Positions 2,941 to 61,124 of a stretch of 64,000 bases of DNA are shown here, in pieces. The translations under genes and the position numbers were made by a program. Origin of the DNA: Eukaryota sp. GEM-RC1 (taxonomy: Eukaryota); assembly GCA_040285855.1 (NCBI GenBank), contig JAUFOQ010000002.1, positions 620,001 through 684,000 of the forward strand, in the 5' to 3' direction. A model generated the notes under the pieces. It saw only the letters and a program-made list of their open reading frames with translations, did no database searches and had not been told where the DNA came from. Position 1 is the stretch's first letter; every line of letters begins with the position of its first letter.

Positions 2941-2942
2941 AA

Positions 2943-3709: not shown

Positions 3710-6700
3710 TTACATGCAGACTTTCTTGCTCACACTTCTAAGAGGAGCTATATGAACTTTAGCACTACAGTCTTCTGTTGATCCTGTTCCGTTCTCTTTT
3801 GTCTTCTGTTGATCAACAGTTTTTCTGTTCATCGGACAGTTCCTTTTGTCATGACCTGTCTCATGACACATTGAACACTCTCTCAAAATCTTTGAAATCA
3901 TCTTCTTTTCTTTCTTCTTCTTAGAACAAGATCTAGAATTGTGACCGACTTCGCCGCAGTTTGTGCATTTTCTTTTCTTCTTAATCGCCATTCCGTTCTC
4001 GAATTCATTTGTTTGAGATTTTTCTCTCTCAAGAACGGAAGGTCTACTTCTACCTTGGATTGCTGCTTCAATAATACTGTGAATGTTGATACCAGAGTTA
4101 AAGTCTCTGTTCCAGTATGTTTCACACGTGGCGCATCGCACTAAGCCCCATGGTGAAACCTTTGCTTCCTGGAGTTTGCTTTTTAATCCATCCTTTTCTT
4201 TTTCCCATTCATATTTAAAGTTTCTCTGATCTTTACCCAACAGTAATTTTTGGTTATACTCAACAACCTCTTTCTGAAGTTTCTTCTTTTTACGATTTAA
4301 CTTAATTTTCCAATTAGGGTCTCGGACTTTGTCATCTTTTAGGTTCGAGCAAAAGCCTTCTGTTCCAAGCAATGTGCAACTCGAACAGCATTTGCTAGTT
4401 CGATACTCATCGACTAGAAAAACTTGGTATCCGAATTTTCGGAAAAGTTCCCTCATAGATTTGCCTTTTACAAATGATCGTTTTCCAGTTCGTTTGGCTT
4501 TTCTAGAATCAATCCAATCACCAAAACCAATAATTACTTCTCCTGGTGATCCGAACTTTTGAGCAAAACGATGAAGCATATTTTGCTGACTCCTCTGATT
4601 GTTCAAGTATCTCTTCAGTCTCTGGCGTCGGAAAGACTTTTCTTCGTAAAATGTGCCTATCATAGCCCCATAAGCTTCTGTTTCTGTCAGATACAAACTG
4701 TACTTATCTACAAAGTACTTCTATTCTTTTGGTTACCCCGCAGAAGTGGTTGCGGGGTAACCAAAATGACGTAACCAAAAGGGTACTTACTTATCTGGGG
4801 TAACCGAATTTACCTGGCCAGAGGATACTCTGGAGCTGAAATTATCAGCAATTTCCTTGCCAGTCATGTGACGACCATTTACTGTGGTTGTGAATTTCAG
4901 AAGCTTTGAGGTTTCATCGTCAGGCTCTCTGACTTGCTCATTTGGTTGCTTGTTCTTTTTCTTTTTCTTGATAAATCTGCCTCTCTGGTCAGCAGTTCGT
5001 TCACCAGCTGTGTACCGGAAAATTTTCCAGCTGTGGCTTTTTTCAATTTAACTTTGGTGATTTCTTTTTTTCTTTTTGTCTCTTCTTTGAGTCTTTTCTT
5101 CTCTTTTTTGAGTCTCTTCTTCTCTTTTTGTATCCCCCCTTTCTTTTTGCAATTAATTTGTGAAAGCTGTTTAGATCGAGTCTTATTTGACAGGTCAAAT
5201 CCCTCTTGAATTTTTTCGCTCTCAGTTTTCGGACTAACACAAAAGATTAAATCGTGTTGGTTAGGATCAATTGCTACGATTTTTTTTGCCTGTGAGATTT
5301 AATTTAGTAATTTCTTCCGTTGTCAGAGAGTCCACATAGCGCTCTTCTGCAGCCAAGTCATTTGCTGAAAGATTTTTTCTAGGATTTCCATGAGAGTCCA
5401 ACAAATCCTTTCTTGTCATGAGCAGGGAAGTAGAAACACCATCCGTTGTAATAGAGGTAAAAGCAAAGTCATAAGATAGGGAAGTTGGAACTGATTTTGG
5501 TTTAAGAACAGTATTCCATAATTCCTTCCTTATTGTATCCATTTCTCCCTTGAGATCTGGTAAGAATCTCAATTGAAACCAGTTAGAGTCCAGTCTCACG
5601 TGACCAGGAATTAGTGATGACGTCACTGGAAAGGGATTGGTGACGGAGACATTATCACAGAATTCCTCAATCAGTCTGTTCAGATAGATTGCATGTGAAA
5701 GGAACTTAAGAGGGTTTACTTTTTAAGCATAGTATAATCCCTTTGGCATTTTCTTGTTTAATTGACATGTCAAGTAAGTCCTAAAAGCAATAGTTAACCT
5801 AGAATTGGTGTGAAAAATAGTTTGATCCTAAAAATCAATTAAATCAATTTGTCCGTTGACAATCAACTCTCGGATGCTGTTAAGCCGCTGAAAAAATAGT
5901 TTTCGTTCATCTTCACACTCAATTTTCATGGCTCTAGATTTTTTCTCTGTTACTAAGTTGAAGACTCGAAAGACATAGGAGTGAAAGTGTTTTGCCATAT
6001 TATTCTTGTAACTGGTGGAGATCTCAGTGGCCATGTAATCAAGTAGTCTGGGTAAGTACAAATTACTGGGGAATTTTACCATTTGCTTACCAGCAACTAT
6101 AGCAGCAGCGTTCAAAAGAGGAAGGAACTTAGTGAGTAGATGATTAATAAGTCGAATTTTAAGCAGATTCAAAGAATTGGATTTTTTTGCGACCTTTTTC
6201 AGGTCTTCTTGGCGTTCAAGGACAATCTGGCTCAAATGGTCAGATGAGCCGTCCTTTTGATCGTCATCAAAGATAACAAAACCTTCAGAGGTTTCTGATC
6301 CAGAATTTTCGAGTAATTTGGCAAATTACAATGTGTTCCCATAGAATCTTTAAATTTCAAATATTCACAGTCAAATTCGTGAATCAAAAAATGTTTTAGG
6401 AAGTGAGTTCCTCGAACTCTAACGTGGTGACTTCTTTTCACACACGATTCGATAACTTTGATTTTTGATTTTGTCACAACTTTGGTGAGTCTTCTTTTAA
6501 TCACCTTCATTGGAGATTTTTCTCTGATTTTCTGCTTGTTTCCATCAAACAAGTCACAAGCAATGAATTTTAACAGATGCAGGCGATCAATTGCATTTTG
6601 GAGTAAACGGGGTATTGTTGATGAAGCCTTCCAAAGGTCATTGATTGTTTTTAGTTCACTAGAACTTGTTAACCTAAACAATTGCTTTGCAGATAGTGCA

Positions 6701-7518
6701 GAAACATTATTTTCCGCTTTGAAATTAGCGATAGCTTCATCAATATTATACAGAGGATTGGTTAGAATTCGTATTAATTCGGAATTTTTCCAATTTTTTT
6801 GATCATGTTCCAACATAATTTGAGTTACGTTTTCCAAAAAGCGACCACCTTTAAATTTGTACAAGGATTTGCAAACTGAGTTTAAATCCAGGCAGTGAAA
6901 TGGACCAAAAGAGGACGTTTTGCACCATCTCTTAAACCATGTGGGTACATATGGAGTATATCCGTCAAATTGAAAATTAACATCAATCATCAAATGGTTG
7001 CATCTTGAAATCAAAAATGGAAAAGTGAACTTGTCACAGTTATATCCAATCAAAAGCTGTGGACGCATAGCTTTGAGAAATTCAATCAGATTAATCAGCA
7101 TCAATGTTTCTGAACTAAATCCATTGATAGAACAATCTTGAATATATAGTTCATGGCAACCCCAAGTAAAGAGATAAGTGTCGCCTTGACACCCAAGAGA
7201 CGAGCAAAATTCCATTGATACAGAAACAATGGAATCGTTACTTCCATCATAGGAAAACTCGTGTATTAGGTCTTTCACTTGTGGCCCTTGACAGTCTTCA
7301 TCATCACTGTCATGTTCCTCAGCGACCTCTGGATTGAGGCGATGGTCTTCAGAGATAATAGCTCTGATTTCCATAAAGCAAAATAATTTATCCAATGTCT
7401 GGATGTTTTGTGCTTTCAATGGAGTTGGAGATAGTTCCATTGAAAGGCGTTTCACACCTCTCATTGGATGAGGAGAAACAGGACCTCTAGCGCAGTTCAC
7501 TGACGGAAAGGGATTCAT
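3710..7518 (-). pseudogene. Decayed Fanzor1-like nuclease with N-terminal PolB exonuclease-like domain and two C-terminal CCHC knuckles
   Basis: RuvC motifs IVAIDPNQHD (D 5266-5268), FGDW, VDEYRTSKCCSSC (E 4406-4408), CATC..WNRDFNS (D 4103-4105). Collinear with 53990-57800. In-frame stops at 5828-5830 and 5723-5725, frameshifts near 6255, 5280 and 5040, and an 87-bp insertion at 4701-4796. Confidence 0.88.
4701..4796. mobile_element. 87-bp palindromic insertion with 9-bp direct repeat TACTTATCT
   Basis: Direct repeat at 4701-4709 and 4788-4796; internal 16-bp inverted repeat TTTTGGTTACCCCGCA/TGCGGGGTAACCAAAA; removing it restores ...SVTPDKYSLYLTETE... Confidence 0.75.
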
Positions 7519-8546
7519 GAAACCAAGAATAGTCGGTGTCGGTAATGTGATTGATTTGTTCTTACTTTCCCCTCCATTGGATTCCGTTTCGTGATTTATA
7601 GTTCAATTTGATTTTGGAATGTTTTCCTTCATACTAATACTACAGTACAGTAAAACTTCTTCTAGTTCTTACACTCCTTTTCTTCTTGTTTTCTTCTTGT
7701 TATACCTTGTTGTACCTTGACTGTCCTTATAACTTTGTGTACTTTCAAGGACATTCTTGAAGCATTTGTCATAAATAAGCCACCTGCTGATGACTGAAAC
7801 TACTATTAATGTCTACCAAACACTTCTTTATCAAGTTGAAGATCTTCTCAATTCACATGAACATATCTTCTCAAAATTAACAACCCTGACCATTTGTCAC
7901 TCTCGCTGCTTTCCATAAAATACAGACCAAAATTCCGTAATGTTCCTCCTGACTTCTCCTTCCGTTTCTTCTTCTTAGTTCCTGTAGCTTCTCTTCATGT
8001 AGCTTATGTTTGAATCTCTTTCTCCCTCCGCGTTCACATCTCTTCCTCTCCTATTATATATATCGTATAAAACACAGTAATAAGGTCTTTTTATTTCGAA
8101 TCGTCCATAAACACTAAGCTAGAGGCATATGATGTTCTAGTGGTGGTGAATTTTTTTGAACACCACTCTTCCCGGGTTTTACGGGAAGAGATCGAATATC
8201 TTCGTGTGAAAGAAGAAGATCCCAAGTCAAACCCATTGCGATGTATAAAAAATCTTCAGGAACGGAAGAGAAGGCGAGGGAGATGAGGGAAGATGTTAGG
8301 TCTAAAATTGTACTGTAAAGGTCTAAAATGCGGATCAGACCTAGAGCTGGGCACAGACTGACTAGACTAGACTAAGACTACAACAACTGACTACCGACTA
8401 GACTACAGACTACACCAATAGACTATAGACTAGACTAAGACTACACCACCAGACTACGGACTAGACTAAGACGAGAGAAATACACTAAATAGTAGACTAA
8501 ATAGTTTTGTCCAAACATGAATTATAACAAGAAATTCTACTGAAAT

Positions 8547-9486
8547 TATAGATGGGAGCCGGCTCAAAATTTGATCACGGCTCAGCCGCAGGCATCAGCC
8601 AGCCGGCTGCGGCTTACAACACATTTTAGTTAGCTAAAGCCGGCTGAAGCCGGCTCATCCTCATCGAGTTTTGTTTCGAGTATTAAGGCTAACTGCTTAA
8701 AAGTGTTATTGACTTGTTGGTTGATATATCAGTAAAATGATACAGAACCATTGTTAATGACAACTACACCGAGTATCAAAACGACACAATACTGATATTG
8801 ATATCATTGATCAGTACATTCCAGTTTTCACAGATTTTACATGTCACTTATTTTTGTGGTTATCACTTATAAACTTGACGTTGATCAGTTAGATATTACG
8901 GAAATCTGTGAAACAACCGTAACACCACTATGGAATTGGTTGTCTGTCTAAAATAAGAAAACAGTATAGTAGTACTTTTGAGAAGGAGCTGAATTGGTCC
9001 TAAAGAAACACAGTCGTTGGCAGAAGATCTCTGACGGACTCCAGGTTTTTTATGTCTAAGAACACATATATATCCATTTTATATGGACGTAAAAGATGTA
9101 ATAAACATATCAAGTTTCAGAAATAGACACTGCGACAATGTACATAAGGCACTGAATGTACTATCAGTGCCCCCAAGAAAAACATTAGGGCAATTATTCG
9201 ACACAAATCAACTATATTCACCAATTCCATTGTTGCTCGAACGTTGATAAACATTAGTAGCCCTAAACTGTTCTGATAAGCGCTGTACATGATTATGTTC
9301 GATTTCTAAATAAATTAGTCGTTCTTTATTGGCTCTGTTTTCAGAGAACTTAAAATATTCGGCTTTGAGCCGGCTGAAACTATTTTTAGCCAGCCGGCTT
9401 GCAGATGGAAATATTTCTATTCTGGACCAGTCGGCTGGCTCGGTTAGCCGGCTAAGCCGGCTAAATTGAGCCGGCTCCCATCTCTA
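8547..9486. mobile_element. hAT-type MITE nested in the hAT element
   Basis: TIR TA(T/G)AGATGGGAGCCGGCTCAA; 8-bp TSD ACTGAAAT (8539-8546, 9487-9494); subterminal AGCCGGCT palindromes. Confidence 0.92.
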
Positions 9487-9501
9487 ACTGAAATACATGT
9501 A

Positions 9502-10149
9502 CTAGAAGTCGAATACCTCGAAGCCACCATCAGCCCAAGATTTTAAACAAACAAGCGCTCTCGGCGTTTCAGCTTCCATAGAAGCTCTTCGTAGAGCAAT
9601 TGTCTGACCTGCAAGAGAAAACAGTCGTTCACATGCCACGGATGTTCCTTGGCAACTAAGGAAATCCCTGGCAAGTCTTGCAAGTGTAGCAAATGTTGAT
9701 TCATTGCTCTTCCACCAAAGCAAAACGTCAGTTTTCCAACAGACATTGGGGTAACTCATATAGGTTTCCAATTCTGCGCTTTGGTTAGGCCTTTCCGACT
9801 GTTCCTGTGTTTCAAGAAATCCTTCACTATCAGATGATACAACAACAACATCAGATTCAGCTTTGTAATAAGTATCAATAACGATGTCCAGCATTTCTTT
9901 GAAATCCCGCGGAGTATCAAATCGATGTAGGTTAGCCAGCCTACATCTTGGATCCAAAACTGCACAGCCATATGCAGAAAAGTCATAAACATCACCTAGG
10001 TACTTAAGCAATACAGTTTCAATTTTGCTACATGCATTGGATAACCACTTATACATGTTGTGTGCATCGTCTGAATCCTGTAGAGAAAATCTGGGCAGTT
10101 TCTCAGGAGGTTCAGTCAATTGTGTTAAAAATAGTAGACTAATGATCAC
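9502..10149 (-). pseudogene. hAT transposase C-terminal (dimerisation domain) remnant
   Basis: AVLDPR, LLWWKSNESTFATLARLARDFLSCQGTSVACERLFS, LVCLKSW. Confidence 0.9.
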
Positions 10150-10356
10150 ACTAATTTATTGTGAACAGACTACAGACTAGACTACAGACTTAATGATCAG
10201 ACTACAGACTAGACTAAGACTAAGTGAGTAGACTAAGATTTAGACTAAAAGCTTAGTCTAGTCCGTAGTCAGTAGACTAGTCTAGTCGAATGCCCAGCTC
10301 TAATCAGACCTTTATGCAGTGAAATTACAAACCTCAAAACATTTATATTCTTCTTC

Positions 10357-11546
10357 ATGGGCTTATCTAACGATTCTCAAATCAAATGGTCTACCAGTCG
10401 TGACATCCAAGTTTTCCCCACCTTTCAGTCCATGAACCTTTCAGAAGATCTTCTTCGTGGAATTTTTGCCCTTGAAATACGTCGTCCTTCAGCTATCCAA
10501 CAACGTGCTCTTGTCCCTATTCTTAAATCTCGTCACGTCATTGCTCAAGCTCAATCAGGAACTGGTAAAACCACAATGTTTTCTATTGCGTCTCTTCAAT
10601 TGGTAGAAAAGTCTTCAAACGAACCTCAAGTCATCATTCTCTCTCCCACACGTGAACTTGCCCATCAAATCCATGATTCAGTAATTTCTTTTCCGATTTC
10701 ATGCATGTCTCTGCTGTTTGTCTCCGTGGAGGACAATCAATGAAGGAAGACTTCAAGAAGCTCGATAATGGATCTCAAGTCGTATCTGGAACTCCAGGAC
10801 GTGTTCTTGACATGATCTCTAAGGGAGTTTTAAGAACCCGTCATATTTCCACTTTAATTATTGACGAAGCTGACGAGATGTTAGAGCATGGCTTCAGAGC
10901 AAACTTAGACGATATCTTTAGAACCCTCCCTCCCTCTGTTCAAGTTGTTTTAGTTTCAGCTACACTTCCACCTGATGTTCTTGAGGTTTCTGAAAACTAT
11001 ATGAAAGATCCAGTCAAGATTCTAGTGAAAAGAGATGAACTTACATTAGACTTCATCCGTCAGTTCTATGTATCAGTTGAGAAGGAAGAGTGGAAGTTCG
11101 ACACTCTCTGTGATTTGTACGAGTCAATGGCAATCACCCAAGCAGTGATCTTTGTAAACTCGAGAAAGAAAGCCGATTGGCTTAGCTCTAGGCTTGGTGA
11201 GAGTAACTTTATTGTGGGAAGTATCAGAGGTGGTGGAGATGTTAAACAACAAGCTCGTGATGATGTGATGAAGAAGTTTAGAAGTGGGGAATTACGTGTT
11301 TTGATTGCTACTGATGTTATTGCTAGAGGTATTGATGTGTCTCAAGTGTCGCTGGTTATTAACTATGACGTTCCCTCATCACGTGAGACTTACCTTCACA
11401 GAATAGGAAGGTCTGGTCGTTTCGGTCGGAAGGGATTGGCTATCAACTTTGCAAAGGACGAGGATTTGTCATTGTTAAAGGATATTGAACAATTCTATGG
11501 GTGTACTGTTGATGAGTTACCATCAGATGTGTCGTCTCTTATTTAA
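10357..11546 (+). CDS. EIF4A3: DEAD-box helicase eIF4A-III
   Basis: [57 protein letters not shown]; one T missing in a run near 10690 joins the two ORFs. Confidence 0.88.
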
Positions 11547-22295: not shown

Positions 22296-22489
22296 TCACG
22301 AAGGAGAAATAATTTAAATTGGTCAAACAATTTGGGTATATCATCATTCAGCCAAATGGTGTTTAACTTCTATAGAGATATACTATTAATCAAGGGTTCT
22401 ATATTGAACATATCAGGTCCAGCACATGAATACCATTAACTTAGACATCCTTAAAGAATGCTTATTCTGAAAACTTCCTCTTGGAACAT

Positions 22490-22800
22490 TTCTGAACAAG
22501 GCAAACAGAATAGGTACAAAAAACCATTGTTGGCTCTGGAAACAGGTAAAAGCATGTTGAAAATGATTTATGTCCTTTTACTGTTTCAATCTATGTCTCT
22601 TCAGGAAAAAGTGCACTCATTTTGTTTGTGATTTCGGAAAAATCGTAAAAAGTGAAAGAACATACTCTTTAATCATACTAGTATGTTATTGTTGAATCGT
22701 ATTGTTTTTGCTGTTTTAAAAACAGTTCCCCTAGTCATCTCCAGAGCTTTACTAGCTGTGACTTCCTTTTATGAAGACAAAGCTGTTGTTTTAATGATTT
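22490..22800 (+). mobile_element. 3' fragment of RLE non-LTR retrotransposon
   Basis: LNRIVFAVLKTVPLVISRALLAVTSFYEDKAVV matches the C-terminus of 33390-34031. Confidence 0.8.
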
Positions 22801-22834
22801 CAAATTTCAGTTTTTCAGTATATCACATTTATAT

Positions 22835-22903
22835 AAAAAACGGGGTTTATGATCAATCAGAGAAAAAATTGATTTTGCAAAAATAATAACTAACATACAC
22901 TAA
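22835..22903. repeat. Short dispersed repeat (A-run)CGGG(G/T)TTTATGATCAATCAG...ACATACACTAA
   Basis: Further copies at ~25391-25463 and, partially, ~47349-47385. Confidence 0.7.
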
Positions 22904-25808: not shown

Positions 25809-26270
25809 CTATTGCTGAACAACAACACGAAGAGCAATCTGATCAATTTCGGCTTGTCCCTTGCTGGTGATCTTTCGGCCACCTTCAGGGGTAAGTTCGA
25901 CAAGACTAGCGGCTTCCAATTGCTTAAGGATGTTTCTGGCAATTGAACCGGAGGAAAGAGCGAAATGGTTGGGTCTGCTACCATTACGTTTGTTACCACC
26001 GTAGATTTTGCGGAATCTACCAACACCCATACCAGGACAGAGATATATTTTGCGTGCCATAGAAGCTGAAATCAGTCACATGTAAATCGACATACCGGCT
26101 CTAATAAAGAACCAATCGGGATCAATGGGAGCAAGATCCTTGAAAGTAGCGGTCTTGACAAGGTCAACCCACTCAGGAGCTTTGACACTCTGAGAAGCCT
26201 TTAGTTGTTGGGCATAGGCCTGAATGAATCTGGAACTTTCCACGTCTTTTAGGGTGACAGCAGGGGCCAT
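25809..26270 (-). CDS. RPS19: 40S ribosomal protein eS19
   Basis: [29 protein letters not shown]; 30-nt intron 26066-26095. Confidence 0.95.
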
Positions 26271-26533
26271 TTTGAAAAGAAAGAAGAGGACTCTTAAATT
26301 CCATTTCCACCTACGCAAGAGGTTTTCTGCTAAATACACATCAATTCCACTCCAATGAGTCCTTCGTTACAATGCACTTAAGGCGGTGACCTGATTTTCT
26401 GATATTACATTGTCAAATTGTTCCTTTTGTATTTTCAACATTCACTGACCTTCACAATCACCATGTACATTATTATCAACGCATTATGACAAATATAAAG
26501 AGAAATATCTGGGAAAATGTATTTACAAAAAAT

Positions 26534-26884
26534 TTACTGGTGTATGGGAAGCATACCAATATACTTAGCTTGCTCAACGGAAAAATGACCAGAGAGATCC
26601 CTAAAGACCTGCATTTCAAAATGTTTGCCAATAGCGTCATGGTCTGGCACTGCCAAATGAATCTTGTATATCATTCCAGCAACAACCTGTGTTTTTACAC
26701 TAATTACATGTACATCATCAAGGGTAAGTGATTCTCCATTGATGGAATTGATGTGAGATATGGAATGCGTAAGGGCTTCGACAATATCCGGGTCATTGAA
26801 CTCAGTGTTAGTATGGAAGCCACCGAGAGACTCAGCTGCCAAGCAATAAAGTGCAAGAGAGAGGAAAACAGTGATTAGTCGCAT
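26534..26884 (-). CDS. Secreted cystatin
   Basis: Signal peptide, LGG, canonical TQVVAG. Confidence 0.8.
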
Positions 26885-26923
26885 AGGAGGAAGAATTGCT
26901 TCCCGCTTTTTATACTATCTTTC

Positions 26924-27491
26924 ATGGGTCTTCTTGCTCTTCTACGTAAATTACGACGTTCCGAAAAGGAAGTACGTATCCTTCTTCTCGGCTTGGATAA
27001 TGCTGGAAAAACCACTATTCTTTCTCAACTGGCTGATGACGATATCTCTCACATCATGCCTACTCAAGGATTCAACATAAAATCTCTCTCAAAAAACAAC
27101 TTCCGTCTCAATATGTGGGACATAGGCGGTTTGCATCGTCTCATGCCTCACCTTAGGTCAAAAAGTTATCCGAAGTTACTGGAAGAACTACACAGAAAAC
27201 ACCGATGGACTTATCTTTGTTGTTGACGCTGCAGACCGTCGCCGTATCGAAGAGTGTGCCCACGAACTAACGCAATTGCTAGAAGACGATACTCTGGTTG
27301 GAGTCCCTACTCTAGTCTTTGCTAATAAACAAGATCTTATGCAGGCTCAGCCCGCTTCTGAGATCGCTAACCTCTTGGATTTGGATCTGATTCGTGATCG
27401 CTCATGGCATATTCAAGGATGTTCTGCTAAGGACGGTACTGGGTTAGAGGATGGTCTACAATGGATGCTTCAGTCTATCTCTAGGAAGTGA
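26924..27491 (+). CDS. ARL3: ARF-like GTPase ARL3
   Basis: [36 protein letters not shown] across 28-nt intron 27129-27156, NKQDL. Confidence 0.92.
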
Positions 27492-31589: not shown

Positions 31590-31990
31590 TTTTCTTTTTT
31601 TTTAAATAACAAGTTTTATTGACAACAACACTACAGTGTACATACATCTAATAATCAATATCCTCAAAGTCCAGATTGCCTAACTGGAAATTTTCACCCA
31701 CCTTATCCTCATAATGTCTGCCAAGAGATAATAAAGCGCTAGATACAGAAGTCACCATACTTTTAAAGATAGCAAACACGATTCGATTTTTCCAAAATCT
31801 AAGATCAAATGTCCTAGATGTTTTTTCCTTTACAAACTTCACAAAGATTTCAAGTAATTATGTTGCAGATTCACCTAAAGAACCGTACAGTGAAAATACA
31901 AAAGGGTACAACAAGTAATTCGAGTGTGAAGCCGAATTCAATAATTTCAATTTAGCACAGTATTATTGCATTTTTCCGTTTTCTACATAC
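31590..31990 (-). mobile_element. 3' end of RLE non-LTR retrotransposon with A-rich tail
   Basis: PFVFSLYGSLG, FDLRFWKNRIVFAIFK; AATAAA followed by an A-run; inverted copy at 34655-34800. Confidence 0.8.
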
Positions 31991-32639
31991 CAAGTTTAGA
32001 TCGAGATTTCTACAAAAGAGCAACAACCTATAGACCAGGTTTAAGTAAAGCTTTTTCCCATGTTTGAGCACAGTATATCAAATAGAACTTAAACGGAAAT
32101 TGTAAAAATTCATTTTCAGAAATTTAATTGTATGGTCTTTACTTAAAAAAAAATTAGGAGAAGGCTAGAGTGATGCTTTGAAAGTCAAATGCAAAGTTAA
32201 TTTTAGTCATACTGTATGATTGTAGTGAGTGGAGATGAAGGTGTCTAATATATTGTTACTGAACCGTGTGAACTTCAACACGAATGTGTTGTCAGCGTTT
32301 TGACCAACAAAACAATGCATGGGTCCGTTTTTCCCACCAAAACACTCTGCGTTATCCTACTCAATCAAACAAAATTGAAAACTGTACACACAATTTACCG
32401 AAAGAAGTTAAAAGTTATTTCGCAAATGGTGGAAACGGAAAAAATAATGTCCAAAAATCCACATTCAGACAGTTAAATGACAGTGACTTGTATTTTTTTT
32501 CATGTTTTTGGAAATTGACCTTGAATTACAGGAATCAAAATTAGTGAAATCCATGAAATTCTCTGACAAGATAACCAAGGACCAAAAAAATCAAGACATT
32601 TTTAATAATTGATTTCATAGCCCAATACATGAAGATTAT

Positions 32640-33050
32640 ATATAACCATACATTTTCCAGTGAATATCTTTGAGGTTTGGGGTTTACATCTTCTAAATTG
32701 TGGGCTAAAACAGCCTTCATTGGTGGTGGAAAGAATTTTGTATTCGAGTTTTGTAATCGATATCCATCAAGAACTTCTCTACTTGAAAGTACTTGCAGCT
32801 TTTATCCTGTCTCCGTGGTGAAATAGGAAATCTTTCTCCTGAGTTTTGGTCATCCTGCTGTCCTGTTGATATCAAAGAAATTCCATGTCGAAATATTGTG
32901 TCCTTAAAATTTGCTTCAAAGAAGCTATATTAAAATATTTTGAAAGTTTAGATCATACAGTCCATCGTAGCTCGGCTAAGGAAAATAATCCAGTTTAGCT
33001 AATTGTTTAATTGATTTAAAGGAGAGTTCTGCTGTGGTATTAATTCATCA
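32640..33050 (+). mobile_element. Degenerate retrotransposon fragment
   Basis: Inverted match to 34160-34570. Confidence 0.8.
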
Positions 33051-33389
33051 AATTATTATCAAATGATGACCAAAATATATAAATAAAACTTATTCGGTAC
33101 CCAATACGGTAACCTTCCTACAAAACTATCCTTCAAGTTGCAAAAACAGACGAATAATACTAAGATTAAATCCAAACGACTTTATTATTTTATTGTATTT
33201 GTTTGTGTCTAAGTCTGGACATCAAGTTGCTGCATTGAATTCACGAAGACACAATAAAATCGTCTTTCAGCTTATTGCAGTTTCTATGTGTGCAAATTTC
33301 GGTTCTTCTACCAAGGAGTTTTTTGAAAATTTGTGTTCAGAATTTTTTTATGCAAATTGGTTTTATTATAAATGTAATAGATCAAACAA

Positions 33390-34570
33390 CTAAAATTTGA
33401 TATCATTAAAACAACACCCGTCGCTATCAAACCTTACAACAGCTTTGTCCTCATAAAAGGTACTCACTGTTAAAAAAGCTTTGGAAATGATTAGGGGAAC
33501 TGTTTTAAAAACAGTAAAAACGATCCGATTCAACCATAGCATATGATCAAAACGTTTGTTCATCCTGTTTTTTAAGATTTTTCCGAAATCGTTTAAGAAA
33601 ATCAATGCACTTTTTCCTAAGCGTCCGTAAATTGAAACAGCAAAAGGACATAATTGGTATTCAACGTGTTTTACATGTTTTAAAGCCATCAAAGGTTTCT
33701 TGTACTTATCCTGTTTGGCCTGTTCAGAAATGTCTAAAGGAGAAGTTTCAGACGAAGCGTTCTTTAAAGATGTCTTTTTACAAACATCCACTGACACTAC
33801 ATCAACAACAAACAATTTGTCTAAAGAAGAAGGGACAACAACATCTGCTCTTCTTTTACCAAAAAAATTCTTCTGTTTCTCGACATTACAATTATTACTT
33901 GGTTCTAAAGATCTTAGAAGTGGTTCAACAAATGACTCAATTTTATAAGACTTACACATAGCATGTATTTGGTCTCTTATAGCATCATGTATACACGTTC
34001 GATAAGTTATGTAGCGATTGCAACTTAACAAATGAGAAAACGTTAATTGTTGTCAACAGCTACATTGAAGATCATTTGGCAAATTATATGGCCATAAATA
34101 ACAACGAAGTCTCATTGTAGTGGTCCATAGATGATTTAATAACAAACCATATACTTGTGGAATTTGATTAATTAATGCCACAGCAGAACTCTCCTTTAAA
34201 TCAATTAAAAAATTAGCAAAAGCTGGATTTTTTTCCTTAGCCGAGCTAAGACGGACTGTAAAATCTAAACTTTCAAAATATTTTGATAAATGATTTTGTA
34301 ACTTTTTTAAAGCAAACTTTAAAGACAAAATGTTTCGACATGGAATTTCTTTGATATCAACAGGAAAGCAAGTTGACCATAGCTCAGGAGAAAGATTTCC
34401 AATTTCATCACGGAGATTATTAAGATAAAAGCTGCTACACTTGTAGTAATTTCAAGAAGAGAAGTTCTTGATGGATATCGATTACAAAACTCAAATACAA
34501 CATTCTTTCCACCACCAATAAAAGCTGCTTTAGTCCACCATTTAGAAGATGTAAATCCCAAACCTCCAAA
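33390..34570 (-). mobile_element. 5'-truncated RLE-type (CRE-like) non-LTR retrotransposon: Zn knuckle plus restriction-like endonuclease
   Basis: CSC..HLLSC, RTCIHDAIRD, RADV..VVDV, EQAKQDKY, PFAVSIYGRLG. Confidence 0.85.
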
Positions 34571-34654
34571 TCAGAATTTGGCAAGAAGTTTAACAGATCG
34601 TACTGGAAGACTAAATTTGCTTTTTCGATTTTTAGGTATATGTATAGATATGTG

Positions 34655-34800
34655 TAGCGCTTTATTATCTCTTGGCAGACTTTATGAGGTTAAGGTAGGT
34701 GAGAATTTCCAGTTAGGCAATCTGGAATTTGAGGATATTGATTATTAGATGTATGTACACTGTAGTGTTGTTGTCAATAAAACTTGTCAATTAAAAAAAA
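34655..34800 (+). mobile_element. Severely 5'-truncated retrotransposon 3' end with poly(A)
   Basis: Near-identical reverse complement of 31595-31742. Confidence 0.8.
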
Positions 34801-34862
34801 AGAATTGACAAATTGGAGGTTTAACGCAGAATAAGAGATTTAACTTATCAATTAGGCATAAC

Positions 34863-39522: not shown

Positions 39523-39731
39523 GTTTTGTCTGTTCTAGTATTCTATTTGTAAATCATGTCGTTTAGATTTCTGATGTTAACTATTTGTTCAATTGTATCA
39601 ACTTTACTAAAGTCAGTGTGTATAACATCAATGTAGATCATCCATCATAGTGGTATATTATAGAGTTTTTAAGTCGTGCTGACCAGAAAAATGAACTTCC
39701 TTTTTTCTCCACATTTTCCTCGGATTTTTCA

Positions 39732-40564
39732 ATGCCTAGCAAGGAAACTAAGGATCAGTATCTAGCTCGCGTTGAGGAGCTTTTTTGCACCTACAGCAAA
39801 ATTATGATGGTTGGTCTGGACAACGTTACTTCCAACCAAATCCAGAAGATCAGAATGGCTCTCCGTGGAAGGCAGTGATGCTCTGTGGTAAGAACGTATG
39901 ATTCATTTCGATCTCACCCCAGACCAGAATCAGTGTTGCCGTCAAGCGTGCTGCTAAGAAGTTCGAGTCTATCAACAAGTTGTTACCCTATTTGTACGGT
40001 AATGTTGCCTTCATCTTTTCCGATGGAGATCTAGTTGAAATCCGTGATATCATTCTCTCTAACAAGGTAGAAGCCCCAGCCCGTGTTGGTGTTATCGCTC
40101 CCGATGATGTGCACATTCCTGCTGGACCTACCGGTCTCGAACCTACACAAACTTCATTCTTACAGGCTCTCAACATCGCAACCAAGATTGCTAAAGGACA
40201 AGTCGAAATCATTAATCCTGTTCATTTAATCCGTAAAGGAAGCAAGGTTACTCAGTCTGAAGTTGCTCTTTTGCAAAAGCTGAACATCAAGCCTTTCTAC
40301 TATGGAATGGAACTTTTCCGTATCCTCGATGAAGGGTCTATGTACACTCCAGTTGTGCTCGATATTACTCAAGATGATATCCTAGACTTCGTTAGAGCTG
40401 GTGTCAATAACATTGCTGCTGTCTCCATGGAAGCTGGAATTGCTAATGCCGCTTCTATTCCTCATTTGGTTATCAATGGAGTCCGCAACTTGTTGAAAAT
40501 CGCCGCTGCCACCGATATTTCTTTCACTGAAGCTGAAGATCTCAAAGAACAATTATCTGCATAA
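39732..40564 (+). CDS. RPLP0: 60S ribosomal protein uL10/P0 lacking the acidic tail
   Basis: DNVTSNQIQKIR, GKN|T, GNVAFIF, APARVG, TGLEPTQTSFLQALNIATKI; intron 39896-39922; one A missing near 39870. Confidence 0.92.
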
Positions 40565-53734: not shown

Positions 53735-53989
53735 ACAAGATTCTAAAGACTCTTTAGTATCGAGGGAAATGTTAGCCTTCTCTTTAGTTAAAAGAAGGCT
53801 AAGATGTCCTTTATATTCCAATTATTTTCAACTAAATTATTGTTTACTATTTTTTTCTTTATGCTTCTACTACTGTGAATTTCATTCCAAATGCATAAGG
53901 GCATAACCCTTCAGCATTTTCATGAGATAAACCACAGTTGACAAAGTCCTCATTCGCAAAGTCTTTTAAAACGAGCTAACTTCATAGAT
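53735..53989 (-). ncRNA. Candidate omegaRNA of Fanzor copy 2
   Basis: Three stem-loops (53743-53757, 53772-53802, 53889-53919) just downstream of the Fanzor stop codon; boundaries unknown. Confidence 0.45.
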
Positions 53990-56900
53990 TCAAGATTCCT
54001 GATCTTTCTGGTTTACGTGTGAGTCCTTGGGTACATCTTTCTTAGGCTTATTTGGACAAGTTGTTTTGTTATGTCCAGGTTGAGAACATATACGACACTT
54101 GTTAGGACCTCTGACAGTTGTTGGAGGACGTTTTGCCTTACCCTTACCCTTACTCACAGTCTTTTTCTTAGGAATCTGATCTGTATTCCCGCCATCCACG
54201 ACAGGTGTTGTTTGAGATTTTGGTCTCTCGAGGATGGCAGGTCTACCTTGACCTTGAATGGTTCCATTTACAATATTGTAAATATTGATAGCAGAATTGA
54301 AGTCTCTATTCCAGAGGACATGACATTTAGCACATTCAACTAAGCCCCATGGTGAGACTTTGTTGTTCTTCAATCTTTCTTTCGAAAATGGCAACTGGTC
54401 AGTCCATTCTTCATCAAAGTTACGCTCCACAATATTGTCTAAGTGATTGTGTTCCATAATTTCCTTTTTTAATTCTTTCTCTTCCTTCTGTAACTTCTTC
54501 TTCCAATGAGGATCAGTGACTTTTATCCTTTCAGGATTGGAACAGATACCTTCGTCGTTTGTGGAAACACATGCAGAGCAACATTTGCTGGTCTTAAATT
54601 CATCAACTAGGAACACTTTAAATCCAAATTTTCTCAATAATTTCCGAATTGAAGCACCTTTTACAGTCGATGCTTTACCTCTTCTTCGACGAAAAGCAGT
54701 GTCGTTCCAGTCTCCATACCCAACAACGACTTCATCTGGGTTTCCAAACTGGAGAGCAAATCTGTGAAGCATGTTTTTCTCACTTCGTTCCTTTCTTGAA
54801 TACTGTGTGAGACGATTCCGTCTAAACCACTTTTCTTCGTAAATTCCTTCTGTAGTTCTTTGATCAGTAGTGGGTGATCGTAGTAAAGAACAGGTAATTT
54901 CTTTACCAAGAACAAAAGCAGAATACTGAGTCAATTCACAAGATTTACTACCTGGCGAGTTAGAGCCCCATTGATCTAAAATTTGTTGCCCATTTATGTC
55001 AATGCGTCTGCCATCTGGAATGTGAATAAATTGGGTAGAGTATTGTTGTAACCGTTCAGATTCAGATAAACGGTGGAGATTATATCGTCTTATTTTCTTC
55101 TCCAGCTTCCTCTTCTTTCTCTTAGCTCTTTTTCTTTCCTTCCTTGTTTTTTTCTTTTTCCATGGAGACTTTTTAATATCGGCATTGCGTTCCCCAGCAG
55201 TGTATCTGAATACTTTCCAATTGTCTCGATTTTTCAACTTGACAGTTGATGGTTTGTCAATAGTGGGTGCGTCTTTCCAATCCTTCAATTCCTTTTTTAA
55301 TTTTTTCAAGCTTCCTTTTTTCTTTGACGATTTTGGACAAATCTTTCTTCTTCTGAGATTGGCTGATGTATCGAAACCTTCGATTTCCTTTTCCTCCTTA
55401 GATTTTAAAGAAGCACAATACATCAAATCATGCTGATTAGGATCAATAGCAACAATTCTTTTTGATTTCAAATTTAAGTTTTGAATTTCTGTGGAACTCA
55501 AAGAATCAATGTACCTTTCAGTAGCTGTGTAGTCAACAGCTTTCACCTTCTTATGAGGATTTCCTTTCCCATCAAGCAGATCTTTCCGCATCATTATTAA
55601 ACTACAACTAACTCCATCTGTAGAAATAGAACTGTATTTGAAGTCATGAGACAATGACTTTGGAAGACACTTTGGTTTCAAAACTGAGTGCCAAATATCT
55701 TTTCGAACGTCATCAAAGCTTCCTTTAATTTCTGATGCATAAACTTCTTTAAACCATGTAGTATCCAATCTGATATGATTAGGAATCAATGATTTTGTTA
55801 GAGGAAAAGGATTATTGGCAGTAACACCAGGACAAGAGTCTTCAACAAGACGTTTCAAATACACTGCATGACTTAAGAATTTCAAAGGATCTACTTTTTC
55901 AGCATAATAGATTGATTTCTCCATTTTACCTTCAAAAAAAGTAAACAAATAGTTAAAAAATAGTAAACTCAGTCTAGACTTGGGATCAGGAAACACTTCA
56001 ACATCTTGAAAATTAATTTTTGAAACTTCCCCATTAATGATCAACTGTCTGATTTCATTAAGCTTTGTACACAACTCTTGTCGTTGATTCTTATCACTAA
56101 GCTTGTTAAGTCTATCTTTTTCAGGGTAACCAAATTAAATACTTGAAAAACATATTCGTGAAAGTGTTCACACATGTTGGTCTTGTAATTTGTAATAATT
56201 TCTGTTCCCATGTAATGCAATATACGAGATAAACGATGACTACTGGGAAACACAATCCTATCAAGTCCAACGGAATCAGCAGCTAGTTCTAAACGAGGAA
56301 TGTAATGCATCAAGAAGTGTTGAGCAAACTGATTTTGAGTTGAGCCATCATTTGTGTTAGAAATTATGTTTTCTAAAGATTCTTGTACAGTCCTAATATG
56401 ATTCTGATTGTTTACAAGTTTGTAGTCCCTAATCGTCATCATAGACAACACTTGTTCCATTGATTTCAACGTAAAAAAATTGTTCCAGTCTGACAATTCA
56501 ATTTTGTAAGTTTGAATTCTAGTCCAAAGGTCAGGTTCAGGTTCACCACTCGCATCTTCAATATTTTCTAATTTAATAGGAGGAGTAGCAGCATCGATAG
56601 ACTCTGAATGTACATCTGTTTCTTCTTCAGTTGACTCATCTGTATCAGAATTCATTTCTTCCTTAACAGTTACATTTGGAACAGTAGCAGGCAGTAACTT
56701 CTGAATGTAACCTAAAATACCTGAATGTTGAAAATTATGAACAAAAAAATGTTTCAAAAGAGAGAACCACGGACTCTTACTTGATGAGCTCTCTTAACAC
56801 GAGATTCAATAAATTTAACCTTCGCTTTGGATACAACATTGTCTAGTCGTTTCTTAACCACTTTCATTGGTGACTTTGAACGTAATGTTTGCTTTTTGGG

Positions 56901-59033
56901 ATCCAATAGGTCAGCCAACAAGTATTCAATCAGAGGTAATTGTTGAATTGAGTTCATCAACAATAGCGGTCTTGTCGATTCCTTGGCCCAAAGTTCATTT
57001 ACTTTCTCCAAATTTTTTACAAATTTCTTTTTAATCTTATCGACCTTCACTTTGGGATTGTCTGGAACTAAAACATTAATACTGTCAATTATGCCATGCA
57101 AGTTTTGGACATTATTGACCAATTGAACTTCATCAGGATCAGAGTCATGATTAAGATCTTCCAAGCGTTTGACAGTTTCATTTTTAGAAAAATTATTCAT
57201 TTCAAGAAAAATTTGAACAACATTTTCCAAAAAACGGCCACCAGTAAAGACATAAAAATTCTTCAGTACAGCATTCAAATCAAGACTAAAAAACGGACCA
57301 AAAGTTGTTTCCTTACACCATTTGTTGAACCAAAAGGGAATGTAGGGTTTAAATTCTGGAAAAGTAAACGTTGTATTGATTTTGAGGACTTGACAACGTG
57401 ATACAAGAAAGGGAAATGTATCTAAGTGAAAGTCATAACTCACAAACAATCGTGGACAATGTTGAGTAATGAAGGAAATGAAGTTTTTAAGCATACTGGA
57501 TTCACTATCTGAAATATGTAAAGTACACAAATCCAAGTTTGTAGTATCAAAATTGCCATGAGAAAATAAATGCTTTTCATTAAACTCATTGTGATCAATG
57601 ATCTGGATGGAAATTGATACAATCGGATCAACAGAAGAATCACGTTTAACTTCTAATTGATCTTCAGCTTCACCTTCAACAGTTTCAATGTCATCATCAT
57701 CTTGAACAAGTTGAACATTTTTGCCATTAATTCTTTCTGAATTGTCAAAATCACTTTGAACGTCAATCAAACAAAAAGCTGGAAGATTATTCCAAAGTAG
57801 AGGGGATTTAAGAAAGTCTTGAATTTGTATTTCTTGTTCGATAGGCTCAGTGTGTAGATTTACTTCCATTTTATGGATTTCTTCTTGAATTGGTGATGGA
57901 TACGACATAATGGAGGCATGTGATTTTGGTGGTAGTTCAGATGGTGGTACTTCAGATGGTGATGGAGCTAATTCAGATGATGGTACTTCAGATGATTCCA
58001 ATGTGGACATACGGCGGTGAGTCTTTCGTATTGGAGTGTCACCAGTTGAAACAAGGGAGCTGGTAGTTCTAAATTTATTTCGTTGAATTAAAGGTGAACC
58101 TCGTGGTGATGGAATATCAGAAATTTTGGGCTTACTTTTTTTAGTGCTAAAACCAGTAGATGTTTTAGTGCTAGCAAGACGTGAACCTGTGAGAGGAATT
58201 GAAGTGGTTGGATGTTCTTTACCGGCAGGAGGTTGAATGGGTAACGATGGTTCAATAGGAGCTACTGTGGTTTGACGTTGTTGTAGATAAAGTGTCCTTT
58301 GTTGAGACAATACATCCCGAATTTTTTCACGAAATATGTCTGCTTGAAGTTCATTGTTCACTTGGACCAAATAAGTTTCCAAATACATCAGAGACGGAAC
58401 ATACGTGAGTCTTTTAAAAAGTTCAACATATTTTTGAATATACGCAATGACATAAACTCCACAGTCGTTAGCAGACTGTGTTTTAGTCACAGGCACATAA
58501 CGGAAAACATACCCCCATGGCACAAGTACTTCGGATAATATGTCTACAGCTGATTTTACCATAGACTTACTCATATCTTCGCTAGTTAACATTGGATCAA
58601 TGAAGATCCAATCCTTTTCAGAACAGTCTATAATGGCTAAACCCCAATGATAACCAGTGACACCTTCTCTGGAATAATTAGCATTTCTAGTCATGGTATC
58701 ACTAAGGGGAACAAAGAGATATTTGGAGTTTGTTCTTTGATTTCGCTGAATTTTCGTCAACAACCATTGATCTAGCGGGGCATCTGGTGAAACAATATAT
58801 TGAAGCAATGTGGTCGGATGGATAAACATGCTTTCAAAGTCTAACTCTGCTTCTTGAAATATCACTTTACAGTACTCCACTATCGCTTCGTCATCAACCC
58901 ATTGATGAGGATAAACTGAGTTTATGGCTTCTTGAGTTACGGGTCCTGGATTGGATTCAATATCACCATCAGCGGTGAGGTCTTTTGGGAACGGAGGATG
59001 GGAAGGGATAAACAGGGGAGACGAGTACTTCAT
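53990..59033 (-). CDS. Giant multidomain Fanzor1-like protein: 2A - Ulp1 protease - degenerate PolB exonuclease - Fanzor - CCHC knuckle (~1,680 aa)
   Basis: IVAIDPNQHD (D 55442-55444), YGDW, VDEFKTSKCCSAC (E 54599-54601), CAKC..WNRDFNSAINI (D 54302-54304), CRICSQPGHNKTTC. Adding one base to homopolymers near 56757 and 56118 joins three ORFs and restores alignment with copy 1; no in-frame stops. Confidence 0.88.
58941..58964 (-). other. 2A-like ribosomal skip (StopGo) motif DIESNPG-P
   Basis: KDLTADGDIESNPGP exactly matches D(V/I)ExNPGP. Confidence 0.85.
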
Positions 59034-59070
59034 GGCAACAAATGTATGTGTTGATAAAACACAGAATGAA

Positions 59071-59443
59071 CTGTCCTTATCTAAACTCAACTGAGCCCGA
59101 AACCGTGCAATGGAAACAGTCACAAGTTGAGTCAGATAAGGACAGGATGGCGGCATTATCGAAGCAACAGAAGTGGAGGCAGTGGAGGGAAAGAACTGTC
59201 CTTATCTAAACTCAACTGAGCCCGAAACCGTGCAATGGAAACAGTCACAAGTTGAGTCAGATAAGGACAGAATGGCGGCATCATCACAGCAACGGCAGTG
59301 GGGAAAGCAACGGCATTCATCACAGCAACGGCAGTAGAGGGAGAAGCAACGGCAGTGGAGGGAAAGAACTGTCCTTATCTAAACTCAACTGAGCCCGAAA
59401 CCGTGCAATGGAAACAGTCACAAGTTGAGTCAGATAAGGACAG
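59071..59443. repeat. Three identical 75-nt hairpins
   Basis: Units at 59071-59145, 59196-59270 and 59369-59443; stems CTGTCCTTATCT/AGATAAGGACAG and ACTCAACT/AGTTGAGT; linkers built of GCAACGGCAGTGG-like repeats. Confidence 0.93.
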
Positions 59444-59598
59444 GATGGCGGACAACATCTGTTTGGATGCAGAACAAACGACATTTATACTGTAGGAGGA
59501 AGGAAAATGAAATCCCACACAGACTGTAATGGACATGTGTGTGTGAATTCACGTGTTAAAAAACGAAATCTGTAATAAAGTCTATACCAGAATTTCCC

Positions 59599-61124
59599 AT
59601 GTCCTACTCAATCTTCAAACTCAGAAATACTTCTGAACAAGAAAGTCGTTCCCGTACCATCAAAACATATATGAAACTTGTTGTAAAGCTTGCTGATAAG
59701 CATGCAGTTAATTTGTCACTTGTTCTTCTTCCTTATGGAACATACAATTCATGGAGAACTAAATCCATCCACATAACGGAAGTGTCAACATCTGACTTAC
59801 CAGATGATCTTAAAAAGGGTACCATGGATTTTTGCCTCAGCTACAAATCAGCCGTTGCCATTGTGCTAGATGTTGATCTAGAAACTGTTCATCTCTTTCC
59901 TTTTGATGGTTCTTATGAGAAGCGTGACATATCTCTTCCACTTCCTTCAACAACTTCAACTCTAAATCATCTTAAGGATCTACTCAAAGACGTTAAAGGA
60001 GATACAATTGCTCTTTCCCCTCCTCCTCCTCAGCCTCAATCTCCTGCTCTTTTACATGATTGTGACATTACTCGCATTGACGATACTCCATCTCAAGTCG
60101 TTTTTCCTTCACCAAAACGTCGTATTGATAACTTCGCAATCAATCATATTCATTCTATTTTCTCTGAACCATCTGAAATAGTTCCTGTTCCAGTCAGTGA
60201 TAATGCTAATTTATCTAAACCTATGAAACGCAAAAAACAACGTAACCCGTTGATTCTTTCTGTAGATTTAATCAGTGATCAGTTTTACATAAATTCAAAA
60301 TTAAAATTTGAATTTAGTGATATTGAGAAAATGTTGACAAAGGATGATAGGGAAGGTAAAACACAACTCTTGTTGAGTTCTGAACTTGATTTCATTGTGA
60401 TGCTTGCATTCCAAAAATTTAAATCAAGTAGGTACAAGTTCCTGCAATCTCAAGAAACTCAACAGTTGGTTGGTGATCCAATATGCTATGCCTTACATTC
60501 TGGTAAGGCTATTGTCGATACACTAAAATCAGGAAAAGAATTCTTGCCCCATTATGTTTGGTGAAAGAACATGTTCCTGGTGATGCAGGATCTGGTCATT
60601 GGATTCTTATTGAATTGTTTCTTAATGAAGCAAATGTTTTATTATTCAATATTTATGATTCTTTGGATTATTCATTAACCACAGAATTAATCGTTAATCC
60701 TTTTAGAACTGTTTATGGATGTGGGGAAACAAATCTGTTTGCAAGATTACCAGAGTATAAGGTGGACTACTATATACCTTTTGCACAGTCAACATCGTCT
60801 CTTATCTGTGGATGGATTGTCTGTTTGAATGTTACTTTAATTTTACAAGGATTAATGGTTGATGCACGTCAGGAACAAAATCAGACAAAATTATACACTA
60901 ACAGATCAAGAAAAAATCTATGTCTTGTTATGTATGATCTACTTCAGAGTGTACAACCTGATTTGGTGACAGAACAAAATGTAATTGATGGTTCAACAAC
61001 AAAATTTGATAACAAATCGTTGAAGACAGAAGACGAAAATGAAGTTTTAGGGAAAAAAACAGGAAAACGAAGAATTAAAACCACTGCAAGTGCTTTTGGA
61101 ATCAAAAAGACTTTAAAAAAATGA
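59599..61124 (+). CDS. Ulp1/SENP (C48)-like cysteine protease
   Basis: One T added near 60545 gives FFAPLCL...GHWILIEL...IYDSL...AQS...ICGWIVC. Confidence 0.7.

Follow-up and report, generated by a model that had tools for sequence, protein, structure and literature searches.

A 64,000-nucleotide stretch of DNA from Eukaryota sp. GEM-RC1 (assembly GCA_040285855.1, contig JAUFOQ010000002.1, positions 620,001 to 684,000), referred to here in its entirety as the window, carries on its minus strand, at 53990-59156, what is probably a mobile Fanzor1 gene of giant size. Read in this way the gene, termed here copy 1, is one continuous reading frame which is broken by assembly errors alone, and its protein is a predicted RNA-guided cutter in front of which three modules have been captured, i.e., a 2A motif, a cysteine protease domain, and an exonuclease-like domain of the family-B DNA polymerase (PolB) type. 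Fanzors fused to such an exonuclease domain furthermore constitute one clade or family, and the architecture of copy 1 is not a one-off.

Layout of the Giant Fanzor Gene

Copy 1 is encountered as three minus-strand open reading frames (ORFs), found at 56754-59201, 56041-56793, and 53990-56134, which overlap and lie in successive -1 frames. With an X placed at each of the two breaks, these give a chain of 1,681 amino acids (aa) as begun at the ATG at 59033, or of 1,722 aa as begun at an in-frame ATG at 59156. An initial annotation of this DNA had joined the three ORFs, via two homopolymers, into one frame of about 1,680 aa, with which the present chain agrees, the breaks lying in a T run and an A run; its chosen start, ATG 59033, is indeed in frame, though the earlier ATG had been overlooked. 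From N to C terminus the order is the 2A motif (residue 23), the C48 protease domain, a Ser/Pro/Thr linker, the PolB exonuclease domain, the Fanzor core (from about residue 720), and a CCHC knuckle (1647).

ORF A, taken from its first ATG (56754-59156, with ATGs at 59156 and 59033), contributes a leader, the 2A-like motif GDIESNPGP (58941-58967), the clan CE/C48 cysteine protease domain (58300-58940; His 58649, Asp at about 58598, Cys at about 58463, and an oxyanion Gln), the linker, the exonuclease-like domain (56900-57775), and the first 40 or so residues of the Fanzor core. Break 1, a -1 frame change in the T run (56756-56759), then leads into ORF B (56041-56793), which supplies an acidic insertion along with the REC part of the core and matches the Fanzor1 profile described below with E 5e-8. 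Break 2, a -1 frame change in the A run (56117-56121), leads into ORF C (53990-56134), which holds REC/WED, RuvC I-III, a C4 zinc finger, lysine-rich insertions, and the C-terminal knuckle (54056-54097). ORF C is open over 714 codons and keeps all catalytic residues.

Pfam recognizes Peptidase_C48 (E 1.3e-5, aa 98-204), DNA_pol_B_exo1 (E 3.6e-7, aa 448-556), and Cas12f1-like_TNB (E 4.7e-8), while NCBIfam provides no match for the window's ORFs. The zinc knuckle noted in the initial annotation is plain as a pattern (CxxC-x4-H-x4-C), though weak as a Pfam match (E 0.03). Pfam families for a polymerase palm, a capsid, an integrase, or a reverse transcriptase were found neither in the three ORFs nor in whole relatives nor in such neighbouring ORFs as were scanned and, because these hallmark gene families were not found, the element is not assigned to Polintons, viruses, or non-LTR (long terminal repeat) retrotransposons.

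Identity of the Fanzor Core

The RuvC motifs named initially are all present, i.e., IDP at 55447, GDW at 54715, VDExxTS at 54607, and WNRD at 54313, together with the CxxC/CxxC zinc finger. As residues these are D1198, E1479, TS1482, CxxC 1486-1489, CxxC 1568-1571, and RD 1577-1578, which is to say that the motifs stand in Fanzor1 order and that all three RuvC acids are present. The gap from the Asp to the TS is 283 residues (125-275 as published) and that between the Cys pairs is 78, insertions having widened both.

A profile built from 29 stand-alone Fanzor1 proteins, with a length of 654 positions, runs collinearly, over its positions 12-642, with residues 723-1612 of the X-read chain (E 2e-74). 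Among solved structures the best sequence matches are SpuFz1 (E 2e-15) and PpFz1 (E 1e-10), and the seven fold matches with E below 0.001 are all Fanzor1 chains, with Fanzor2 at E 0.012 (model pLDDT 63, TM about 0.3, and global packing poor). The core resembles Fanzor1 more closely than it does Fanzor2, TnpB, or Cas12, such that the earlier Fanzor1 identification is upheld both by sequence and by fold. RNA-guided DNA cutting by copy 1 is predicted from this likeness.

A Family of Exonuclease-Fused Fanzors

Relatives were gathered by similarity plus cluster look-up, giving 144 fetched proteins (designated here by P numbers), which is not a census. Searching with ORF A returned 35 matches, mostly GEM-RC1 fragments but also P0088 from Eukaryota sp. 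TZLM3-RCL. The two names are ones that I take to belong to the metamonad genus Skoliomonas of a nanopore-assembly paper. In that paper, PMC11316075, the isolate names are written GEMRC and RCL. The best matches to ORF C are five GEM-RC1 proteins (41-67% identity), followed by 29 ordinary Fanzor1 proteins of 550-730 aa (34 in total). No longer relatives of ORF C were seen among 7,981 candidates, which indicates only the limits of that search since relatives of 1,394-1,494 aa exist. Metagenome contigs contained no relative, and viral contigs only one ordinary phage PolB (locus L001) and no Fanzor fusion.

On the GEM-RC1 side four subfamilies can be distinguished, and copy 1 and its relatives are multi-copy in a eukaryote: two copies reside within the window, and 30 GEM-RC1-named or window-encoded proteins cover the site of break 1. 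P0046 runs from the exonuclease domain through RuvC-II in a single 1,182-aa chain, while P0095, P0097, and P0060 join the exonuclease domain to 2A and to either a single or a double protease domain. Further proteins with 2A plus protease, some having two protease domains, are seen from both isolates (P0075, P0081, P0085, P0128, P0134, and P0142), and these may lead either into a Fanzor or into some other element. As leader, 2A, and protease types are mixed among subfamilies, module exchange between these subfamilies is suggested. From TZLM3-RCL there are ten proteins in two clusters. Six of them, which are gene predictions, are unbroken at 1,394-1,494 aa and carry 2A, the exonuclease, and every RuvC motif but no protease. 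One long reading frame as the norm for this family is supported.

When the Fanzor core is placed in a tree (25 rows, 556 columns), the eight exonuclease-fused rows make up one side of a branch with 100/100 support, opposite 17 stand-alone Fanzor1 proteins. With midpoint rooting, the TZLM3-RCL pair splits first among the fused rows. Long branches meet at this point, and the outgroup consists of the matches of a single search only.

Copy 2, also on the minus strand (3710-7518), is of another subfamily (about 40-50% aa identity) and consists of an exonuclease-like domain plus Fanzor, with two knuckles and without 2A or protease. It is a pseudogene, possessing two in-frame stops, several frameshifts, and a palindromic insertion. 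The latter, of about 60-70 nt, is found at 4720-4800.

Are the Frame Breaks Real?

Support for the repair of copy 1 had been drawn initially from copy 2, and copy 2 does read through both break sites in one frame, though it is itself decayed as well as lacking the first two modules. P0054, P0002, P0035, and P0038 also span both sites. Of 13 same-subfamily proteins that bear on break 1, six read through, six break two codons further on, at the next T run, and one breaks as in the window. As these proteins split 6/6/1 over neighbouring T runs, it is the same homopolymer that fails in many copies. At break 2, 25 of 25 proteins from three other subfamilies read through.

Two housekeeping genes of the window provide a gauge of its assembly noise. 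The eIF4A-III gene (10276-11546, plus strand) is split at a T run, where its frame changes, with coverage of the human PDB chain contiguous over 23-127 and then 129-410, and with no spare DNA between the two parts. In the uL10 gene (39651-40564, plus strand) the frame shifts within a brief A run, directly ahead of a short intron. The GEM-RC1 and TZLM3-RCL relatives come from R9.4/R9.5 nanopore assemblies, polished using Nanopolish along with Illumina reads (PMC11316075). GEM-RC1-named public copies possibly are from the same assembly as the window, and they are not counted here as independent sequencing. Because copy 2 reads through both sites and because these two nearby genes display the same fault, it is quite likely that the breaks are homopolymer assembly errors.

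Introns may be dismissed as their cause, as the only GT-AG pair across break 1 spans 60 nt, leaves the wrong frame, and would cost a motif that every subfamily retains. An altered genetic code may be dismissed as well, the proteasome gene stopping at TAA where expected.

That copy 1 is an intact Fanzor, as originally claimed, is nonetheless no more than likely, since break 2 recurs within its own subfamily. Read-through of break 2 is seen in none of eight same-subfamily proteins and seven of these eight, one of which is the window's own, share the same out-of-frame tail, which is also how a real, shared mutation would look. Break 2 might accordingly be viewed as real and inherited, i.e., with the subfamily having lost the link between front half and nuclease, the copy being non-autonomous or decaying, and the layout alone being ancestral. 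Consistent with such loss, the 34 matches to ORF C include no same-subfamily protein which covers ORF C, and copy 2 demonstrates that copies do decay. ORF C, however, remains open with every catalytic residue in place; the eighth protein, P0124, has a different tail, one which, judged from the protein alone, fits a longer A run at break 2; there is bias in the set, the cluster gathering fragments that stop there; and the window's housekeeping genes are broken in the same manner. An inherited break is on balance unlikely. Less likely by far is programmed -1 ribosomal frameshifting, which would yield much front-half protein and little full-length nuclease. The identical site and direction in seven of eight copies would be expected of it, and the run at break 2, G AAA AAG, resembles slippery sites. 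That site nevertheless departs from the X XXY YYZ heptamer, is followed by no stable RNA structure (z -0.19), and is read straight through in all the proteins of the other subfamilies. Assembly error, to return to it, is the reading of both breaks that is followed below.

The Exonuclease Domain

In copy 1 the exonuclease domain was suspected initially of being dead, and indeed the ExoII and ExoIII acids are lost in both window copies as well as in P0046 and P0054. For copy 1 the D-x-E of ExoI is incomplete, the ExoII Asp is Thr, and the Tyr/Asp of ExoIII are Asn/Gln; residue by residue this is N/E (or D/Q in another register), D/T, and N/Q, versus E/H, N/T, and N/R for copy 2. Catalytic acids are absent from all four subfamilies of the window and GEM-RC1. 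Sequence matches are to Pol delta and to archaeal and T4-like PolB. Foldseek, given a model of the domain, finds PolB exonuclease domains (E 9e-6), and VIA gives Z 10.9 with rmsd 4.0 over 133 aligned residues, 18 chains having Z of at least 8 and nearly all of these being DEDD folds. The ESM Atlas adds PolB exonuclease clusters at 0.87, as a lead only.

It is different in TZLM3-RCL. Aligned with the phage PolB of locus L001, the reference for these motifs, the domain of P0120 and P0088 keeps the ExoI D-x-E, the ExoII N-x3-F-D, and the ExoIII Y-x3-D, with BLAST between them spanning ExoII to ExoIII (E 3e-9). All three motifs are found in seven of the ten TZLM3-RCL proteins, the other three being fragments. 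An active-type DEDDy 3'-5' exonuclease is therefore predicted for these relatives. P0071, also from TZLM3-RCL, represents a second type of exonuclease domain, 29% identical to the main type, with ExoI and ExoII intact and truncated before ExoIII.

Identity between subfamilies over the core of the dead domain is 46-57%, versus 52-68% for the Fanzor segment. As the dead domain's core is nearly as conserved as part of the Fanzor core, it would appear to be retained for a non-catalytic job. The domain ends a few residues ahead of the start of the Fanzor, with almost no linker between.

The Protease and the 2A Motif

The protease of copy 1 has a His-Asp-Cys triad along with an oxyanion Gln, and the triad is invariant across eight of eight aligned element-borne domains. 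A profile of these eight, from which SENP8-like host proteins were excluded, matches SENP8 (E 4e-15), Ulp1 (6e-13), and SENP1 (1e-10), SENP8 and Ulp1 being separated by 7 bits. A clan-CE protease with intact triad is supported by these alignments. The initial description of the domain as SUMO-protease-like holds as to clan, while as to specificity it may be either SUMO or NEDD8, the profile leaning slightly towards SENP8. The protease is optional, there being zero, one, or two per protein.

The 2A motif, also proposed originally, fits the published consensus, GD(V/I)ExNPGP (PMC3708506), and skipping is predicted from it, although the motif alone is insufficient, the right upstream context being needed as well (PMC3708506). 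It begins at residue 23 as counted from ATG 59033 and at 64 as counted from ATG 59156. Exact or one-residue variants are found in 37 of the 144 fetched proteins, two unrelated matches having been excluded. Placement of 2A at the N terminus is usual for non-LTR retrotransposons (PMC3708506) and for eukaryotic 2A in general (PMC12338488). Skipping would shed a leader of 30-70 residues, so what results would be a fusion protein more than a viral polyprotein; the virus-like polyprotein of the initial annotation accordingly overstates the case, as a 2A positioned only 23-64 residues in, much like that of non-LTR retrotransposons, points to a short leader only.

Candidate Element Ends and Guide RNA

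Upstream of the gene, at 59064-59474 on the minus strand, there are three tandem units of 113 nt, all of them containing a long hairpin (z -3.2 for a single unit), which likely are the element's 5' region. In 16 of the 37 2A-bearing relatives, exact repeats are translated as part of the leader. Downstream, 45-120 nt past the stop codon (53870-53945, minus strand), is a nested stem-loop ending in CACAGT, a candidate omega-RNA scaffold whose guide would then come from the flank below 53872. It folds at -26.4 kcal/mol (z -5.2, for a window chosen by eye), with one in 892 GC-matched windows folding better. SpuFz1 has a 75-nt scaffold in the equivalent place, with 14-15 nt of flank as guide (PMC10432273). 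The 5' repeats and 3' stem-loop, as well as the intact exonuclease motifs of relatives, had been missed initially. Two further hairpins (53739-53809) lie beyond the candidate guide-RNA end, as part either of a further element end or of the flank.

The corresponding segment of copy 2 (3625-3700, minus strand) likewise ends in CACAGT and can also be drawn with the nested stem of copy 1, the 3' half of which it shares, two DNA copies having been compared. Homology to an unrelated flanking repeat starts directly after the CACAGT of copy 2, and CACAGT for that reason fits the element's end. A 27-nt 3' pattern derived from both copies, for which its own two matches are circular, has no third copy within the window. 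Rfam yields nothing at gathering score in the window, with chance hairpin matches only at the ends and no known ribozyme in the 5' repeats.

A Proposed Mechanism

From the domain order, the catalytic residues kept or lost, and the multi-copy family of like layout, all of which are observed, I infer four steps, which are offered as proposals. Translation would begin at a variable upstream ATG, with 2A shedding a short leader, such that the protein would start at the protease whatever the state of the 5' repeats. The stem-loop past the stop codon, together with flanking DNA, would then serve as guide RNA, RuvC would cut the empty site, and repair from an element-bearing template would keep or spread the element, as for TnpB. 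TnpB reportedly cuts vacant sites, with homologous repair following, and by extension copy 1 may do likewise. The exonuclease domain would handle the 3' DNA ends of the cut, trimming them in relatives possessing the acids and only binding them in the window's lineage. Lastly, the protease would free host proteins near the cut of their NEDD8 or SUMO, thereby tilting repair or silencing toward the element.

Taken together it is possible, if somewhat doubtful, that the RNA-guided domain cuts, that the fused DEDDy domain trims 3' ends, and that host repair then copies the element without a transposase. TZLM3-RCL proteins would in that case be live two-nuclease enzymes, with the window's lineage having instead a DNA-end clamp and an added deneddylase or deSUMOylase.

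Various points weigh against this picture, or against the reading of copy 1 on which it is built. The last 60 residues of ORF A, taken alone against the Fanzor profile, are scored as high by 69 of 1,000 shuffles, the link of ORF A to Fanzor resting instead on longer open frames, i.e., copy 2 (E 0.001), P0095 (E 1e-4), and P0046. The exonuclease model is of low confidence (mean pLDDT 53, and below 50 in the ExoIII region). The 3' stem of copy 2 is no more stable than shuffles (z -0.4). For copy 1 no transposase, terminal inverted repeats (TIRs), or target site duplications were found, only 7-mer matches; TIRs are also missing from some described Fanzor1 families (PMC3627910). Engineered exonuclease fusions, moreover, lowered the activity of a Fanzor2 (PMC12923547).

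The same modules can be viewed from other perspectives. Copy 1 could encode a true polyprotein, one in which, after 2A skipping, the clan-CE protease frees both itself and the exonuclease-like domain, leaving a Fanzor of normal size. Viral clan-CE proteases such as S273R do process polyproteins, S273R is among the weak profile matches (E 0.02), the triad is intact, and a long low-complexity linker follows the protease. Whole TZLM3-RCL proteins, however, keep the same exonuclease-Fanzor fusion without having a protease, the exonuclease domain abuts the Fanzor nearly linkerless, and the best profile matches are proteases of ubiquitin-like proteins, all of which makes polyprotein processing improbable. 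Just as improbable, if not slightly more so, is that the exonuclease domain works on RNA, trimming the 3' end of a guide precursor rather than DNA ends. Guides do need cutting to length from read-through transcripts (14-15 nt for SpuFz1; PMC10432273), and DEDD-fold RNA trimmers are found among the fold matches (RNase T, 3'hExo, and ERI2, Z 5.4-6.0). The top sequence and fold matches, though, are all DNA polymerase proofreading domains, and guide maturation proceeds in ordinary Fanzors though they lack such a domain.

Likeness to Known Systems

With Fanzor1 proteins such as SpuFz1, PpFz1, and GtFz1 (for comparison see Bao and Jurka 2013, PMC3627910; Saito 2023, PMC10432273; Jiang 2023, PMC10530073), copy 1 shares the split RuvC D/E/D, the C4 zinc finger, GDW, and WNRD, as well as its multi-copy occurrence in a eukaryote and a structured non-coding segment just past the stop codon. 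It differs in being about 1,700 aa versus a mean of 620 (PMC10530073), i.e., almost three times the usual, in its fused front modules, in the CCHC knuckle behind, in a RuvC-I of DPN, and in motif spacings that insertions have stretched.

Ginger1 and Mutator are known to carry Ulp1 domains as cargo, with steering of repair as proposed role, and in the Ulp1/OTU proteases of Ginger1, Mutator, and Helitron a C48 domain likewise is fused to the element's nuclease (PMC2836005). Those elements have a DDE transposase or RepHel as the partner whereas here it is an RNA-guided nuclease, with a protease leaning towards SENP8. The N-terminal 2A of L1Tc, Ingi, CR1, and Crack resembles that of copy 1 in its GD(V/I)ExNPGP, about 20-80 residues from the start of one long ORF (PMC3708506, whose text does not mention DNA transposons); unlike in those retrotransposons, there is here no reverse transcriptase or APE domain. 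The exonuclease has the fold of PolB proofreading domains (Pol delta, ASFV, archaeal, and T4-like), with ExoI-III intact in TZLM3-RCL, but is followed by a Fanzor rather than by a polymerase. Fusions of TREX1, TREX2, and T5 to MmeFz2 also tether an exonuclease to an RNA-guided cutter (PMC12923547); those are engineered, with editing reduced, whereas the present fusion is natural, has a polymerase-derived exonuclease, and is conserved throughout a clade.

The initial annotation suspected this architecture to be undescribed, and a search of article listings on Fanzor and TnpB domain fusions (protease, exonuclease, DEDD, or Ulp1) turned up no natural fusion of the kind. Nor is it mentioned in the available portions of PMC3627910, 10.1101/2023.08.09.552727, PMC10530073, PMC10432273, or PMC6338049, the supplement tables giving sizes and database names rather than domains. 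The exonuclease- and protease-fused layout thus would seem to be a new form of Fanzor1, with prior listing possible.

Other Features of the Window

The window is eukaryotic, with genes for proteasome alpha-2, COPI beta', inositol-phosphate synthase, Arf, eIF4A-III, and ribosomal proteins, and some host genes have GT-AG introns of 27-30 nt. These short spliceosomal introns are seen in RPS19, Arf, and uL10 (26026-27488 and 39875-39925). Flanking the element are the convergent proteasome gene, ending at 53317, and a divergent gene (59599-61124, plus strand) starting near 59599. That latter gene is broken near 60530, and its second part shows an Ulp1-like order of protease motifs (His, Asp, Gln, Cys) with a weak profile match (P 0.015); Pfam and the ESM Atlas give nothing for it. 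It may be part of the Fanzor element.

At 8342-10303 there is a hAT transposon remnant, having 12-nt terminal inverted repeats, an 8-bp target duplication, and GACTA-type subterminal repeats (ends read by eye), within which a second element is nested (about 8545-9485). A tandem unit of about 920 bp (1772-3633), with inverted copies at 22471-22839 and 31592-34804, adjoins the 3' end of copy 2. Its CxC/His/Cys and RAD-like motifs presumably are those of restriction-like endonuclease retroelements.

Significance

Fanzors are known as compact, stand-alone nucleases, ones whose role in eukaryotic transposons is unclear. The fused clade hints at what such an element may need once a cut has been made, namely end processing and control over host repair, and whole natural proteins such as P0120 make this hypothesis accessible using single-residue mutants. 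Fanzors are also extended here to a metamonad lineage, no paper on Fanzors in metamonads having been found in the literature search. The live exonuclease predicted for the relatives is the most valuable lead. If active, it would represent a natural cut-and-trim enzyme, and it might supply a natural template for exonuclease-nuclease editors, for which engineered Fanzor2 fusions have failed (PMC12923547).

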